From a virus (taxonomy: Duplodnaviria > Caudoviricetes), in the IMG/VR virus record IMGVR_UViG_2854208954_000001, positions 15,498 to 79,497 of that record: a DNA stretch of 64,000 nt. One strand, given 5' to 3'. A program made the position numbers and the translations under genes. The notes beneath the pieces were generated by a model. That model did not search any database and was not told the origin of the DNA. It worked only from the letters and a program-made list of their open reading frames with translations. Shown piece by piece: positions 33,783-43,209 of this stretch; the stretch's first letter is position 1; each line of letters starts with the position of its first letter.

Positions 33783-34715
33783 TTACATATTAAGTGTACC
33801 AAGCACCTTACCTACACAACGAACATCATCAAATCCGTGTAAAGGTATAGGCTTATAGGCTGGATTAAGTGAAACAAGCTCCTTTTTTCCTAATTTTTTA
33901 ATATACGATTCACCGTTAAGTACAAAAACCCCGATTTCGCCTTCAAAGACACTTGATGTTTGCTTAACAAGCACGGTTTCGCCGTTTGAAAATTTAGGTT
34001 GCATACTATCACCTGATATTTTTAACGCAAAATCAGCTGAAGTAGTCATATCATTTCGTGGAACAGTAAGCCATTCAGCTAAAATATCATCGCCAAGCCA
34101 TGAGCCAGTACCTGCTGAAACCGGTGTTTCATAGAACGGAATTACAATAGTGCTTTCAGCAACAGGCTTCTGCTCAGGAGTTATAAGATTAGTAATTCTT
34201 TTTAATACGGCAACTTCACCGTTGATAAATCTTTTATTGTGAAAACTATAATCGAACACTTTCCCGAAATCCGTTGCTGTTCGAAAATCATCAACATATC
34301 GTTCAATTCTACCTATCAATTCAGTTATTGCAGAAAACAAGTACTGTTTATCTTTGGCAAATAAAGCATCATTATATTGAATTCTTCTTAAAGAATATAA
34401 AACAGAATGAATTCTATCCAAACTATGTTCATCAAGCTCGTCACACATCTTCTCAAAATTAAACATAGATAAGCTATGGTCATCACGAATTTCTTCCTTA
34501 TTTGTTTCATCTCTGCCAAGTAAAATATCAACACTTACATCAAAATAATCAGCCATTTTTATAAGTGTTTTTATATCTGGTTCTCTTTTTCCTGCCTCAT
34601 AAAGAGAAATGGTACTTTCAGAAAGACCGAGAATTTTTCCTAATTCTTTCATTGATAATTTGTGTTCTTTTCGTAATTCTTTTAGTTTAGTCATAAGCTC
34701 AGCCCCTATTGTCAT
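33783..34715 (-). CDS. CI/LexA-like repressor (XRE HTH + S24 peptidase)
   Basis: LKELRKEHKLSMKELG..YEAGKREPD; VSAGTG; GDSMQP; YIKKL. Confidence 0.92.
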   Translation of the reverse strand: MTIGAELMTKLKELRKEHKLSMKELGKILGLSESTISLYEAGKREPDIKTLIKMADYFDVSVDILLGRDETNKEEIRDDHSLSMFNFEKMCDELDEHSLDRIHSVLYSLRRIQYNDALFAKDKQYLFSAITELIGRIERYVDDFRTATDFGKVFDYSFHNKRFINGEVAVLKRITNLITPEQKPVAESTIVIPFYETPVSAGTGSWLGDDILAEWLTVPRNDMTTSADFALKISGDSMQPKFSNGETVLVKQTSSVFEGEIGVFVLNGESYIKKLGKKELVSLNPAYKPIPLHGFDDVRCVGKVLGTLNM

Positions 34716-34723
34716 TATTATAA

Positions 34724-34831
34724 ACTTTACTATTAGTAAAGTAAATTAAACTTTGCAAAATGTCAAGAAAAAACTTGACAAATAGTAAATAAAGGCGTAT
34801 TATATACTTGAAACTTGACAATATGCAAAGT
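34724..34831. promoter_or_regulatory. Lysis-lysogeny switch: four 19-bp operators and rightward promoter
   Basis: ACTTTACTATTAGTAAAGT, ACTTTGCAAAATGTCAAGA, ACTTGACAAATAGTAAATA, ACTTGACAATATGCAAAGT; TTGACA(34775)-17-TATTAT. Confidence 0.75.
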
Positions 34832-34847
34832 TGAGGACGGTGATTAA

Positions 34848-35075
34848 ATGAAAAAGCGTGTTTATCTCATTGATTTGAGAAATAAAAAGGGGCTAACTCA
34901 ATTAGATATATCTAAAAGTATGGGAATATCTGAGAGTTACTACAATCTTATTGAACAGGGACAAAGACAAAAGAATATGAACATCGCTATTTTATATGGT
35001 CTTTCTAAAGCATTGAAGGTATCAGTAAACACACTGGTAGATAAGGAAATAAATTTTGCAAGAAAAGGAGATTGA
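34848..35075 (+). CDS. Cro-like XRE HTH protein
   Basis: LRNKKGLTQLDISKSMGISESYYNLIEQG; divergent from cI. Confidence 0.9.
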   Translation: MKKRVYLIDLRNKKGLTQLDISKSMGISESYYNLIEQGQRQKNMNIAILYGLSKALKVSVNTLVDKEINFARKGD

Positions 35076-35281: not shown

Positions 35282-35457
35282 ACCCTCGCTGTAAAGGGTG
35301 CGGACACCGCAGACCATTAAACCATAGTAACAACAAAGGCTATTCGATTTGTTATTACATTCTTGATACGGGACAGCCACGAGATTGCACAGTTGAAGAA
35401 TGTACGCACTACACAAATAAGGAATGTCACATCAAGGAGGACTTATGGACAGATTAG
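35278..35457 (+). CDS. Small Cys-rich hypothetical protein
   Basis: GTG overlapping upstream stop; CKGC..CYYILDTG..C..C. Confidence 0.55.
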   Translation: MNPRCKGCGHRRPLNHSNNKGYSICYYILDTGQPRDCTVEECTHYTNKECHIKEDLWTD

Positions 35458-35630
35458 ATTTATTTGAAAGGAAAAATTTAACTAAAACCGAAAAACTTGA
35501 AAAAATACTCAGAAAATACGGAATAAATTTTGACGATTTAAGACAGCTTAATGAATCTCAGATTAAAGCAGTAGAAACAGACTATTATTCAACTTATGGT
35601 GAATCAATATCAATAATGTTTGATTTTTAA
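35445..35630 (+). CDS. Hypothetical protein
   Basis: GGAGG SD before ATG 35445. Confidence 0.6.
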   Translation: MDRLDLFERKNLTKTEKLEKILRKYGINFDDLRQLNESQIKAVETDYYSTYGESISIMFDF

Positions 35631-35692
35631 GCCGAAACCGCCGCAAGGCGGTCAGCAGGAAATGACCTACCTGCTCTGATGATGGCAGGTCA
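35631..35692 (+). ncRNA. Hammerhead ribozyme, type II with loop-I pseudoknot
   Basis: GCC-GAAA, stem III CCGCC-GCAA-GGCGG, GUC cleavage triplet (35651-35653), stem I AGCAGG/CCUGCU, CUGAUGA core, (U)GGC, pseudoknot UGACCU/AGGUCA. Confidence 0.85.
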
Positions 35693-35707
35693 AAAGGATG
35701 TGATTTT

Positions 35708-37666
35708 TTGATTTATCTAACGGCAAAGGAAGTTGCTGGGATAAAAGGTTGCTCTGAACGATATGTAAAAATGCTCATAAACAATGGAAGTCTTCAGGGT
35801 GATGAAACAATAAACCAAAACAACCGCAAAAAATATTTGATACCTTTAAATGAACTATCCCACTCGGAACAGCTTAAATACTACAAATCGCACGCAATAG
35901 CAATTCCTGAGGATTTGCTCCCCGAACGCAAGACGGAGCGACCCCACAAGGAATTTGATGAATTTTCGGCGGTACAGCGTGAAGAGATTGCCGAATGGAT
36001 AAGGATACTTAATGCTTGGGATGAGTATTGTGCAACATCAAAGTTACAGAAAGTACCTGCAACAGAAAAATTTGTACAACTGCAAAAGGTCGCTAATCCC
36101 GACCTTAACATATCGAAGGGAATTTTGTACCGGAAAAAAAAGGCTTTAAAAGCCGATGATCTTGCAGGACTGCTTGACAATCGTGGAAGTTGGAAAAAAG
36201 GTACATCGTCAATTCCTGAAGAAGTGTGGCAATGCTTTTTAAGTTTTTATCTTGATGAGGCACAGCACCCTATACAGGCGTGCTATGAATACACCGAAAT
36301 GTGGATTAAGCGAGAAGCTCCACAGCTGTTACCTCTCCCTGCTTATGCATCGTTTTACAGGAAAGTACAAACGGCAATACCTAAGCCTGTTGAAATTATG
36401 GGACGGCAAGGTATGAAAGCCTTTAGGGACAGGTGTGCTCCGTACATACGCAGGACATACGAAGGAATGGCGTCAAACGAATGGTGGATTGCAGATAACC
36501 ACACATTTGATGTGCAGACAAAGGGAGAAAACGGAAGTATCCACAGGCTTTATCTTACAGCGTTTTTTGATGCTCGTTCGGGTATTTTTACAGGCTGTTA
36601 TGTGACCGATGCACCGTCATCGCAGGCTACATTGATAGCTCTACGAAAGGGCATAGTTAAGTACGGCATACCCGAAAACATATATGTAGATAACGGTCGA
36701 GAGTTTCTGACATTCGATGTCGGCGGACTTGGTCATAGATTGAAAAAGAGTCAAAAGGACAAGTTTGCACCGCCGCCTGTTTTTGAACGGCTGGGCATTA
36801 AAATGACAAATGCTATCGTACGAAATGCGAAGGCAAAGATTATTGAAAGACGATTTCGAGATGTTAAAGACCGACTTTCAAGACTGTTTCCGACTTATAC
36901 AGGCGGTAATGTAGTCGAACGACCGGAAAGACTTAAAAAGGTAATCAGGGACACCGACAACATACCCACGGATTATGAATTCACTCAGGCAGTTGAGGAC
37001 ATTTTAACCTACTATATGAATGAAAAACCATATAGCGGAGCGGTAAGCTCAGACAGCGGTAAAAGCCGAATGCAGGTTTACAGAGAACAACTTAAAGAAA
37101 AACGAGTCGCCGCAGAACTTGACCTCAACTTGATGTTAATGAGAAGCACAAGAAGTCAGAAAGTCGGCAGGCGTGGAGTACATCTTACTGTTGCAGGCGA
37201 GAAAATTGATTACTACAATGATGACCTTATTTTAAATCATTTTGGAGAATCTGTTTACTGTCGATATGACCCGGAAGATATTTCGGAAGTCAGAATTTAT
37301 GACCTTGATGATAACTACATAATGACCGCTCCAACAGACAATGAAGCAGTCCTTGCCTACGGAGCATCTAAAGATGCAGTTGCTCAGGCACTCCGTAAGG
37401 TTAAGAGCCTTGAAAAACTCACTAAACAGGAACTCAAGGCAAGTCAGATTACAGCATTTGGCAAAGAAACAGCACTCAATCTTGTGCTTGCAACCGCTGA
37501 GGAAAACAAAGCAAATGCCGAGGAAATCAATCCGAAGGTTATATCAGTACACCGTGCCGATGAAACGGCAGAGCAGTTGCCTATGGCAGTTGGTCAGTCG
37601 AATATCGTAACGATAGATAAGGCAAAAATGATAAGAAATCTTGAACAGCGACAAAAGGAGGAATAA
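35708..37666 (+). CDS. Mu-like DDE transposase (MuA-like)
   Basis: N-terminal HTH, WWIADNHTFD, IYVDNGREF, KIIERRF, Mu-transposase C-terminal region. Confidence 0.92.
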   Translation: MIYLTAKEVAGIKGCSERYVKMLINNGSLQGDETINQNNRKKYLIPLNELSHSEQLKYYKSHAIAIPEDLLPERKTERPHKEFDEFSAVQREEIAEWIRILNAWDEYCATSKLQKVPATEKFVQLQKVANPDLNISKGILYRKKKALKADDLAGLLDNRGSWKKGTSSIPEEVWQCFLSFYLDEAQHPIQACYEYTEMWIKREAPQLLPLPAYASFYRKVQTAIPKPVEIMGRQGMKAFRDRCAPYIRRTYEGMASNEWWIADNHTFDVQTKGENGSIHRLYLTAFFDARSGIFTGCYVTDAPSSQATLIALRKGIVKYGIPENIYVDNGREFLTFDVGGLGHRLKKSQKDKFAPPPVFERLGIKMTNAIVRNAKAKIIERRFRDVKDRLSRLFPTYTGGNVVERPERLKKVIRDTDNIPTDYEFTQAVEDILTYYMNEKPYSGAVSSDSGKSRMQVYREQLKEKRVAAELDLNLMLMRSTRSQKVGRRGVHLTVAGEKIDYYNDDLILNHFGESVYCRYDPEDISEVRIYDLDDNYIMTAPTDNEAVLAYGASKDAVAQALRKVKSLEKLTKQELKASQITAFGKETALNLVLATAEENKANAEEINPKVISVHRADETAEQLPMAVGQSNIVTIDKAKMIRNLEQRQKEE

Positions 37667-37669
37667 TAA

Positions 37670-38590
37670 ATGTCGGTAATGTCAGCCAATCCTGAATTAC
37701 AGGAGAAATTAAGGAACTTTATCGAAGAGTGCGGCTCACAAACCAAAGCCGCAAAAGCTCTCGGAAAGTCAGCAGCGACTTTGTCAACCTACTTGAACAA
37801 CCGTTATAACGGTAATTTAAGTGATTTTGAAAAGTTTTTAACAGAGACTTTTGAAACAAAAGCCGCTGCAGAAAATCTCAAATCAGCTCAGGTGCTTAAC
37901 AGCTACAAGCCTACAAGCATAAGCTCAGAGGTTTATGATACAATCCGCTTGTGTCATCTTAAGGGCGGTCTTGCAATTGAGTGTGGCGATGCAGGCATAG
38001 GAAAAACAATGGCTTGTAAAAAGTATGCAGAAGATTATCCGGCTACTGCGATTTATGTGTCTGTAAATCCTTGCTTGGTAACTTTGAGTGCCTTTTTAAA
38101 ACTGCTTTGCAGAACACAGAAAATCACCGCAACAGGTCGCAAAGATGAAATGTGGTTAAGACTTGCAGATAGCTTTGAAGGTGAACGCAAGGTACTCATC
38201 ATTGATGAGGCACAGCATCTGCCGATTAAAACCATTGAGGCTATCAGAGCTTTTTTTGATAGCAACCCACAGCTTGGTATTTGCCTTGTCGGAAACATTG
38301 AAACCGTTACAAATACCGGCAAAAGCAAAGAAGCGTTCGCTCAGATTCGTAACCGTACAAAACTTACCGAAGTAAGGCATACATCAGCAATTAAAAACAG
38401 CGACATTGAGCTGTTGTTTCCTGCCGTTAAGTCCGATGAACGAGCAGTAAGTTTTTTACTTGGCATTGCAAGGTCTGAACAGGGCATCAGAGGAGCAAGC
38501 AATGTTTTTGGAAATGCCGTTGACAACGGAAACATCACCTATGAAGGCTTAATCGCAATGGCAAAAGCTATGCGTATCAAGGTGTTTTAA
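37670..38590 (+). CDS. MuB-like AAA ATPase with N-terminal HTH
   Basis: GDAGIGKT Walker A, LIIDEAQHL Walker B; follows the transposase. Confidence 0.92.
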   Translation: MSVMSANPELQEKLRNFIEECGSQTKAAKALGKSAATLSTYLNNRYNGNLSDFEKFLTETFETKAAAENLKSAQVLNSYKPTSISSEVYDTIRLCHLKGGLAIECGDAGIGKTMACKKYAEDYPATAIYVSVNPCLVTLSAFLKLLCRTQKITATGRKDEMWLRLADSFEGERKVLIIDEAQHLPIKTIEAIRAFFDSNPQLGICLVGNIETVTNTGKSKEAFAQIRNRTKLTEVRHTSAIKNSDIELLFPAVKSDERAVSFLLGIARSEQGIRGASNVFGNAVDNGNITYEGLIAMAKAMRIKVF

Positions 38591-39521: not shown

Positions 39522-39529
39522 TCCGCTCA

Positions 39530-39588
39530 CCTTAATGCAACTTCCGCCAACGGGAACGGTCACAAGTCCGTATGAATGCAGAGTGAGG
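39530..39588 (+). ncRNA. Twister ribozyme, type P1
   Basis: P1 CCU/AGG, U^AA (cut 39533/39534), P2 UGCA/UGCA, T2 AC/GU, P3 hairpin, P4 ACGG/CCGU with L4 UCACAAGU, catalytic G39581-A39582, T1 CAC/GUG. Confidence 0.9.
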
Positions 39589-39622
39589 ACAACAATACAT
39601 ATTGAACAGGAGGTCAATTTAT

Positions 39623-42063: not shown

Positions 42064-42618
42064 ATGGGCAGAAACAACCGCAGAGCTTGCGGAAAAATCG
42101 ACAAATTGCCTCCTGACCTCAAGGACACCGTAGATCAGATGCTTGTCAGCGGACAGACCTATCGTGAAATTGTGTCATACCTTGCTGATAACGGCGAACA
42201 GCTGTCACAGGCAGCAGTTAGCCGTTACGCATCAAGGTTTTTGGCGAACGCTCAGCAGTTACGAATCGCACAGGAAAATTTCAGAATGATACTCACCGAA
42301 ACCGAGCGTTATCCTGAAATTGACCCTGCAGAGGCTATTTTGAGAATGGCATCACAAAAGGTTTTTGATGCCATATCAAAACTTGACGAAGGACAATTCG
42401 ATAAAGTGTCTGCCGAAGACCTTTTAAGACAGGCTACTGCCCTTGCGAGAGCAGTAACATACAAGCGTAAGACCGACACGGATGTCAAGTCAGACAAGCG
42501 TCTTGCCCTCGAGGAAAATCAGAGCCTGCTTTATGACACTATCAAGAAAAGTAACCCACGGCTCTACAACGAGCTTATGGATGAAATCAACAAGCTCAAA
42601 GCAAAGGAGCAAGGATGA
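42064..42618 (+). CDS. DUF3486 / Mu gp27-like protein (small terminase candidate)
   Basis: RACGKIDKLPPDLK..L....TY.EI..L..S..AVSRY. Confidence 0.85.
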   Translation: MGRNNRRACGKIDKLPPDLKDTVDQMLVSGQTYREIVSYLADNGEQLSQAAVSRYASRFLANAQQLRIAQENFRMILTETERYPEIDPAEAILRMASQKVFDAISKLDEGQFDKVSAEDLLRQATALARAVTYKRKTDTDVKSDKRLALEENQSLLYDTIKKSNPRLYNELMDEINKLKAKEQG

Positions 42619-43124
42619 TGAACATCAAGTGGTATGTTTTGTATGTAAACACAGGACAAGAACATGCTGTTGCGGAACAGCTCCGACATCGTGGTTATGA
42701 TGCCATTGTGCCGATTGAAAACAAACTGATACGCTCAAAAGGCAAGTGGATAACCCAACCGCATATACTTTTTGACGGCTATGTTTTCGTTCGTATGGAT
42801 TACGAGTGGTCAAAATATTATGTGTTTAAGGGCATTCCGAACATTATTAGATTGCTCGGAGGTGGAACAAGCCCTATCCCTCTTACGGACACAGAATCAG
42901 AGTTTATTTTGACTTTGAGCGAACTTTTGAAAACTCCCTCGGTGCTTAAATTCACTGATGACGGTTACGAAACAGTCAGCGGATTTTTGGCTGAGAATAA
43001 AGATAAAATTGTGAAAGTACAGAAACGATACAAGAAAGCAACGGTCAAAATTACCCTTGCAAGTGAGCCGACTGAGCTTACAGTATCGTTTACCGAACAA
43101 ATGCCCGAACAGACGGCGGATTGA
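42615..43124 (+). CDS. NusG-paralogue transcription antiterminator
   Basis: NGN domain WYVLYVNTGQE, LFDGYVFV, IPNIIRLLG; KOW-like C-terminus. Confidence 0.85.
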   Translation: MMNIKWYVLYVNTGQEHAVAEQLRHRGYDAIVPIENKLIRSKGKWITQPHILFDGYVFVRMDYEWSKYYVFKGIPNIIRLLGGGTSPIPLTDTESEFILTLSELLKTPSVLKFTDDGYETVSGFLAENKDKIVKVQKRYKKATVKITLASEPTELTVSFTEQMPEQTAD

Positions 43125-43209
43125 TTCGTCTCCACCCGATGCAACGGCTGACATACGGCGAAGTCACCGATAACCTCAGGTTAGCGGATGGCGAAGCTAT
43201 ACCCAAGTT

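Follow-up and report, generated by a model that had tools for sequence, protein, structure and literature searches.

A type II hammerhead ribozyme was found directly in front of a gene encoding a MuA-like transposase in a provirus, and comparison with related phages indicates that the hammerhead, its pseudoknot, the Shine-Dalgarno (SD) sequence and the start codon form a tightly spaced unit, which is conserved as an island across a large clade and whose upstream modules are swappable. The window analyzed here is a stretch of 64,000 nucleotides from an IMG/VR provirus record of 79.5 kb with one hammerhead. An Rfam cmscan of the window matched Hammerhead_II (RF02276) at 35630-35694 on the plus strand with a score of 42.5 bits (gathering threshold, 37 bits) and an E value of 2.5e-5, computed for the whole 64 kb; the match spans the full model (positions 1-66 of 66). 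On these sequence grounds the element is a genuine type II hammerhead, a known class of self-cutting RNA.

All parts of the fold can be read directly from the window (Table 1). The topology is that of type II: stems I and III are each capped by a loop, stem II is left open, and the order is II-III-I-II. The catalytic core required of the family (C3 U4 G5 A6 N7 G8 A9, G12 A13 A14, A15.1-U16.1 and H17; PMC3088659) is complete (35676-35682, 35634-35637, and 35652-35653). The pseudoknot has 6 bp, where the family definition asks for at least 4 bp joining loop I to the nucleotides that directly follow stem II. No additional domain outside the minimal hammerhead and its pseudoknot was detected at 35630-35694, either by reading the sequence or by Rfam. 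Hammerheads cut after C17 and leave a 2′,3′-cyclic phosphate and a 5′-OH. Since the GUC triplet occupies 35651-35653, the known chemistry of the family (Perreault et al., 2011; PMC3088659) places the predicted cut between C35653 and A35654.

The initial annotation of this DNA had already assigned the element to type II and had named an Rfam search as a check; the RF02276 match, together with all core elements and the three stems, bears this out. The cleavage site that it gave, after C35653, agrees with a GUC that is invariant among relatives, and the UGACCU/AGGUCA pseudoknot that it placed against the transposase SD was recovered as 6 bp, with the SD 1 nt downstream and with support from covariation. 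The hammerhead does fill the interval from the upstream stop codon (35628-35630) to the SD (35694). Only the extent of the annotated element (35631-35707) needed revision: the ribozyme in it is real, but the end at 35707 takes in the SD and the spacer, and the ribozyme proper stops at 35692.

Table 1. Features of the early region and of the hammerhead, in window coordinates. In the pair labels, two-digit numbers stand for positions 356xx.
Feature	Position	Strand	Basis or remark
CI-like HTH and S24 repressor	33783-34715	-	Profile search
Sigma-70-like early promoter candidate, TTGACA-17-TATTAT	34775-34803	+	Best consensus match, between CI-like repressor and cro-like gene; consensus match only
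cro/ner-like HTH gene	34848-35075	+	Behind promoter candidate
68-aa ORF upstream of hammerhead	35424-35630	+	ORF call; UAA stop at 35628-35630 adjoins ribozyme
Type II hammerhead ribozyme	35630-35694	+	RF02276 match and covariation
Stem II, GCC with GGC (G31-C86, C32-G85, C33-G84)	35631-35633 with 35684-35686	+	Direct reading
Core G12 A13 A14 and A15.1 (GAAA)	35634-35637	+	Invariant in 59 of 59 sequences
Stem III, 6 bp (A37-U52 to C42-G47)	35637-35652	+	Direct reading
GCAA tetraloop capping stem III	35643-35646	+	Direct reading
Predicted cleavage site, G-U-C17 / A1.1	35651-35654 (G-U-C17, 35651-35653)	+	GUC invariant in alignment
Stem I, 6 bp, 10-nt loop	35654-35659 with 35670-35675	+	Direct reading and covariation
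Pseudoknot 5′ strand, UGACCU, within loop I	35663-35668	+	Direct reading and covariation
Core C3 U4 G5 A6 U7 G8 A9 (CUGAUGA)	35676-35682	+	Direct reading
Extra U between A9 and G10.1	35683	+	Direct reading; conserved in clade
Pseudoknot 3′ strand, AGGUCA, immediately after stem II	35687-35692	+	Direct reading and covariation
SD region of transposase gene, AAGGAUGUGA	35694-35703	+	1 nt after pseudoknot
MuA-like DDE transposase, TTG start at 35708	35708-37666	+	Mu-transpos_C, HTH_Tnp_Mu_2, rve; phrog_310, E 3e-117
MuB-like AAA+ transposition ATPase	37670-38590	+	AAA_22; phrog_296, E 8e-55
Twister-P1-like ribozyme candidate	39529-39589	+	Permissive Rfam scan, 52.2 bits, E 5e-9; below gathering threshold of 67.2
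RAGATH-28 RNA	43115-43197	+	Default Rfam scan, 67.1 bits; gathering threshold 45.3

The genes around the hammerhead were identified by profile searches (Pfam, phrog) as an early region of the Mu type, in the order cro/ner-like gene, small ORFs, hammerhead, MuA-like transposase, and MuB-like ATPase. The 68-aa ORF that ends against the ribozyme gave no significant family in the profile search. The transcript bearing the ribozyme likely originates at the promoter candidate upstream of the cro/ner-like gene, as judged from its match to the consensus. Translation of the transposase is predicted to start at TTG in the window and at an ATG in the same position in relatives such as L007. The host lineage was judged to be Bacillota-like because a SAM (S-box) riboswitch is present in the flanking host DNA (1440-1563, minus strand, 61.5 bits) and because relatives of the phage occur in Clostridia.

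A transposase search yielded 127 loci from gut Clostridia (Ruminococcus, Oscillospiraceae, Lachnospiraceae, Enterocloster, and Anaerotruncus), Collinsella and IMG/VR, and hammerheads were counted in the 118 loci with at least 100 nt upstream of the transposase gene. The hammerhead pattern precedes the gene in 114 of these 118 related Mu-like phage loci, and its end lies no more than 25 nt from the start codon in 104 of those loci. Of 18 diverse relatives scanned independently with Rfam, 15 gave a Hammerhead_II call at this site that reached the gathering score. In the leaders, spacing is tight: 38 of 41 distinct leaders have their pseudoknot end at a distance of 14-23 nt from the start codon, and a purine-rich SD begins 1-5 nt after the pseudoknot. 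The association between ribozyme and transposase, which had been proposed from a single sequence, is stronger than that sequence could tell, the ribozyme-SD-transposase unit being kept across a wide clade.

Across 59 distinct aligned sequences the catalytic core is invariant, save for a U4-to-C change in one subgroup (seven loci). Within the CUGAUGA box, variation is otherwise confined to N7 (U 90, C 12, A 4, G 1), where the family definition allows any nucleotide. Standard pairs fill 97.6% of the pair cells of the four helices in this alignment, compared with 26-50% in slid controls. Both-sided changes were seen at 14 of 21 pairs, spread over all four helices (at five of six pairs in stem I, four of six in stem III, and four of six in the pseudoknot, where 95.5% of cells are paired), and doubly changed cells numbered 265, against 101 in shuffles. 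Because the core columns are invariant, N7 is free and every helix is supported, including the pseudoknot, this pattern was taken as the signature of a functional ribozyme. Judged by these comparisons, the recurrence of the hammerhead before the transposase and the covariation in its four helices are more than chance. A role of the conserved island at the level of DNA, as an operator or enhancer, was also considered and set aside as unneeded, since the compensatory changes specifically keep RNA pairs, those of the pseudoknot included.

The extent of the island was followed in 34 close relatives. Identity to the window is 88-100% over the 78 nt of ribozyme plus leader (at least 94% in 33 of the relatives), whereas in the 150 nt upstream of the ribozyme it often drops to 0.55-0.65, as between unrelated sequences, and over the opening 150 nt of the transposase gene it is mostly only 66-77%; ribozyme and leader are better conserved than the coding DNA that they adjoin. 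At least four unrelated upstream modules join a near-identical ribozyme at its 5′ edge (35629 in the window; around position 2922 in L048-L091), and one variant in public contigs swaps 35457-35628 for 661 other letters and rejoins exactly at 35629. Many loci have, as in the window, an unrelated same-strand ORF whose stop codon abuts or overlaps the start of stem II (17 of 44 distinct upstream contexts). Elsewhere an upstream ORF is lacking on this strand; instead a divergent gene on the minus strand, equipped with a strong SD, begins at a distance of 20-50 nt. It can be speculated that the ribozyme stands at the extreme 5′ end of the transcript in these relatives. In one such locus, L051, an inserted 88-aa ORF with a strong SD (2635-2901, minus strand) separates the rightward early genes from the hammerhead-transposase unit. 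A Pfam search of the divergent upstream ORFs of the relatives, this one included, returned no family. In several upstream contexts that are unrelated in other respects, a TATACCACAAA-like motif recurs at a distance of 2-20 nt on the 5′ side of the hammerhead (L051, 2900-2922; L008, 2880-2903; L024, 2870-2910). This motif could represent a -10-like element or an operator; a simple sigma-70 consensus scan next to the ribozyme in L051 and L008, both with a divergent upstream gene, called no promoter there.

With some reserve, we consider it probable that constitutive processing insulates the message of the transposase and ATPase (A-B) from variable upstream RNA and provides it with a constant, protected leader. 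The early transcript would fold into stems I-III as it is made, would be locked by the pseudoknot between loop I and the 3′ tail, and would cleave itself between C35653 and A35654 during early rightward transcription. The cut would part the A-B message from the RNA of the regulatory genes and small ORFs upstream of it. On the upstream product the stop codon would remain, followed by a tail of 23 nt that finishes with the stem III hairpin and a 2′,3′-cyclic phosphate; such a tail would be long enough for normal termination, and its 3′ end would be capped by the hairpin. The downstream product would begin with a 5′-OH at A35654, base-paired flush in stem I, and would carry 39 nt of structured RNA (stem I, core, and pseudoknot) running into the SD, its 5′ end lying 54 nt before the TTG. 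Neither the translation nor the stability of the transposase message would then depend on the upstream sequence, as expected of a natural processing and insulating unit similar to RiboJ.

RiboJ comes from the hammerhead of sTRSV, to which a hairpin was added. It likewise stands between variable upstream RNA and a ribosome binding site (RBS) and supplies a constant leader; in E. coli both protein and transcript levels rise, and protein was 2-10-fold higher with RiboJ upstream of the RBS (PMC6206723). RiboJ is synthetic, whereas the window element is natural, of type II and pseudoknotted, and insulation by the latter is proposed by analogy. Cleavage left the predicted accessibility of the SD unchanged in the window leader (0.39 vs 0.38), as folded without the pseudoknot. 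Over the family, mean accessibility was 0.39 before and 0.48 after cleavage and was higher in 46 of 66 leaders, values that come from related sequences with the pseudoknot unmodeled and in a setting where any truncation raises accessibility. Pseudoknotted type II hammerheads are fast cleavers that cluster in prophages, and they have been proposed to process long phage transcripts (PMC3088659); the insulation reading agrees with that proposal. In D. vulgaris, in vivo cleavage has been shown for three type II hammerheads located near phage genes (PMC8782182). We infer that cleavage also occurs in vivo here and that its net effect would be standardized or raised, not lowered, expression of the transposase and ATPase.

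A more far-reaching and tentative suggestion is that hammerhead, pseudoknot and SD together may act as the portable head of an expression cassette in transposable phages of gut Bacillota and Collinsella, and that the transposase message would need self-cleavage to be stable and efficiently translated. The 65-nt sequence might in addition serve as a homology patch for the exchange of early modules, which would explain why an 88-100% identical island is flanked by unrelated DNA upstream and by a transposase gene that has diverged. Ribozyme-dependent translation has recently been shown in some RNA viruses (PMC13725137).

Several relatives show loss or decay of the element. In L018 (20-130) the 5′ half of the hammerhead is lost, and stem I, the pseudoknot and the SD are kept; L028 and L121 (about 2900-2992) have degenerate copies, and L109 (about 2330-2411) has a U16.1-to-C change. 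Because these loci have lost or degraded the ribozyme and yet keep the transposase, the ribozyme is not indispensable. The group with the U4-to-C change (L113, 2859-2924) has 57 extra nt before the SD and other hammerheads upstream.

The opposite effect on expression, a lowering of transposase dose, appears unlikely. Decay of the 5′-OH product by RNase J, as in glmS, was one of two fates that the initial annotation had suggested. RNAs with a 5′-OH can be substrates of RNase J1 in Bacillota, as is the case for the product of glmS. The 5′-OH produced by the hammerhead might similarly mark the transposase-ATPase message for 5′-to-3′ decay by RNase J and keep transposase levels low, and the Bacillota-like host lineage (an S-box riboswitch in the flank, relatives in Clostridia) and the weak TTG start of the window fit such a scheme. 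The parallel with glmS holds in that both are self-cleaving RNAs of a 5′-UTR in Bacillota that leave a 5′-OH on the coding fragment; glmS, however, depends on a metabolite cofactor and serves as a sensor, whereas the hammerhead is without a ligand pocket and its 5′ end is buried in a helix. The new 5′ end would be flush-paired in a 6-bp stem followed by the pseudoknot that leads to the SD, which leaves no single-stranded 5′ segment. Moreover, the transposase is the replication enzyme of the phage, and a constitutive ribozyme would be an odd means of lowering expression where a weaker SD would suffice. More distant relatives have ATG starts and strong SDs behind the same ribozyme, and engineered hammerheads in this position increase expression (PMC6206723). 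Taken with the RiboJ precedent, the flush 5′ end and the structured leader would point to insulation or stabilization at least as well as to destabilization.

A conditional switch is considerably less probable. Ribosomes terminating at the abutting stop codon, or a 30S subunit at the SD, would modulate folding or cleavage, and the ratio of cut to uncut RNA would report translation status. The abutting or overlapping stop codon in 17 of the 44 upstream contexts and the distance of 1-5 nt from the pseudoknot to the SD are compatible with such coupling, and the MFE fold of the window contains an alternative hairpin (CCUGCU/GGCAGG) that competes with stem I. This hairpin is not kept, however, in groups with other stem I sequences and was therefore dropped as a regulatory competitor. 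Some loci have no upstream ORF on the same strand at all, only a divergent gene starting 20-50 nt away; the element has no aptamer-like extra domain; and hammerheads of this family are known to cleave fast and constitutively (PMC3088659).

That the element is an inactive relic or a purely structural leader, with the fold kept and self-cleavage blocked by the extra U, is very improbable. The extra nucleotide after A9 does deviate from the Rfam consensus, and L018, which retains only the 3′ half with stem I, the pseudoknot and the SD, shows that this half can persist alone. Nevertheless, the catalytic nucleotides are invariant except for U4 in one subgroup while the free N7 varies, and a role in structure only would not need this. 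The initial annotation had raised inactivation by the U at 35683 as a possible point of failure. Among 41 distinct leaders parsed, the extra nucleotide is U in 38, G in two and absent in one, and it is absent in four rows of the 59-sequence alignment. Its register as a bulge is backed by covariation: the pair C32-G85 is replaced by U-A in 24 of the 59 sequences (C-G to U-A at the middle pair of stem II, 35:24), and G10.1-C11.1 (G35684-C35633) is a C-G pair in all 59. The family calls for this Watson-Crick pair directly beside the core, but in the window U35683 stands between A9 and G10.1.

An extra residue at this very point has been documented in active natural hammerheads (PMC3705267, PMC4209133). 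According to PMC3705267, which cites De la Pena and Flores (2001), a U at that position of the hammerhead of CChMVd increases the cleavage rate 3-4-fold, A gives a moderately lower rate, and C or G are harmful; U was the most active variant tested in the CChMVd context, and an extra U there is tolerated or beneficial in tested hammerheads. The hammerheads of Penelope elements keep such an extra nucleotide as well (PMC4209133). The plus-strand hammerhead of CChMVd and those of Penelope-like elements share the insertion point with the window element, although they are of type III or type I and belong to viroids and retroelements, whereas the window element is a bacterial type II ribozyme. Since active natural hammerheads carry a residue there and the clade conserves the U, inactivation by U35683 is unlikely, and the extra U, a clade-wide feature, would by analogy not be a defect.

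A twister-like ribozyme candidate and a RAGATH-28 RNA share the early operon with the hammerhead. The twister-P1-like candidate sits between a 98-aa ORF and an AbrB/MazE-like gene, and similar sub-threshold matches were found downstream of the A-B genes in eight of eight relatives tested, some with two copies. As in the multi-ribozyme prophage operons of Perreault et al. (2011), the hammerhead and the sub-threshold twister-P1-like match lie on one strand, and relatives have up to four hammerheads and two twisters. RAGATH-28, found at the 3′ end of the ORF at 42615-43124, before the virion genes, is present in the relative L019 as well (6090-6174). This motif class was defined by its association with the gene neighborhoods of hammerheads and twisters. 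RtcB joins 5′-OH and 2′,3′-cyclic phosphate ends. It is hardly credible that the hammerhead and the downstream twister release a 3.9-kb A-B RNA which is then circularized by a ligase of the RtcB type: the two elements are on the same strand, their pairing is kept in eight of eight relatives tested and the predicted 5′-OH and 2′,3′-cyclic phosphate ends match RtcB substrates, but no back-joint was seen in contigs of the runs that contain the locus (contigs being poor evidence on this point), and, because relatives differ in the number of their ribozymes (one or two twisters, one to four hammerheads) and in the spacing, simple punctuation of the transcript fits better than one defined circle.

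The element is correctly identified and largely ordinary: pseudoknotted type II hammerheads, their abundance in prophages and their clustering around genes have been known since 2011 (PMC3088659). The RF02276 hammerheads described then (Perreault et al., 2011; PMC3088659) have the same permutation and core, the 6-bp pseudoknot after stem II and the prophage setting; the window hammerhead differs from them in a 3-bp stem II and one extra U between A9 and G10.1, two of these nucleotides being taken as an insertion by the Rfam model, and this difference is clade-wide. Clustered prophage ribozymes (Perreault et al., 2011, Figure 3; hammerhead and twister neighborhoods, PMC6765202) occur several to a strand, in gaps just before an SD, as do the hammerhead, twister-like and RAGATH-28 elements of this early operon. 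In the clade of the window the partner gene is constant, a MuA-like transposase at more than 100 loci; the 2011 paper, in contrast, emphasized the inconstancy of the flanked genes. In the literature library searched, no paper combines hammerhead ribozyme, Mu-like, and transposase.

What is added here is the ribozyme-SD-transposase unit as a conserved island over a large clade with exchangeable upstream modules. What hammerheads do for bacteria and phages is still an open question (PMC6765202), and the clade offers an unusually clean test case, with one ribozyme tied to one essential and easily assayed gene, that of the replicative transposase. Natural variants with loss or decay are at hand for testing (L018, L028, L109, and the U4-to-C group), and relatives are present in the cultured strains Anaerotruncus colihominis DSM 17241 and Enterocloster lavalensis KCTC 15153. 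If cleavage should be needed for transposase expression, a widespread ribozyme class would gain a concrete function, and Gram-positive synthetic biology a natural insulator part. The hammerhead is also an expected annotation that genome pipelines omit.

Additional hammerheads were observed in some relatives. The Collinsella-associated L008 has four of type II on one strand of the early region (441-505, 1283-1348, 1659-1724, and 2904-2972), and L047, also associated with Collinsella, has three on one strand (860-924, 1702-1767, and 2906-2972). At 1659-1724 of L008 the layout of stop codon, hammerhead, SD and ATG recurs before another early gene; the module is not unique to the transposase. The cultured Mu-like Faecalibacterium phage FP_Mushu (L129, NC_047913.1) has an unannotated hammerhead-like element in its early operon at 2237-2301, between gp06 and gp07 and not adjacent to its transposase gene (gp12). 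It scores 34.5 bits, just under gathering, and has a CUGAAGA box and the same extra U.
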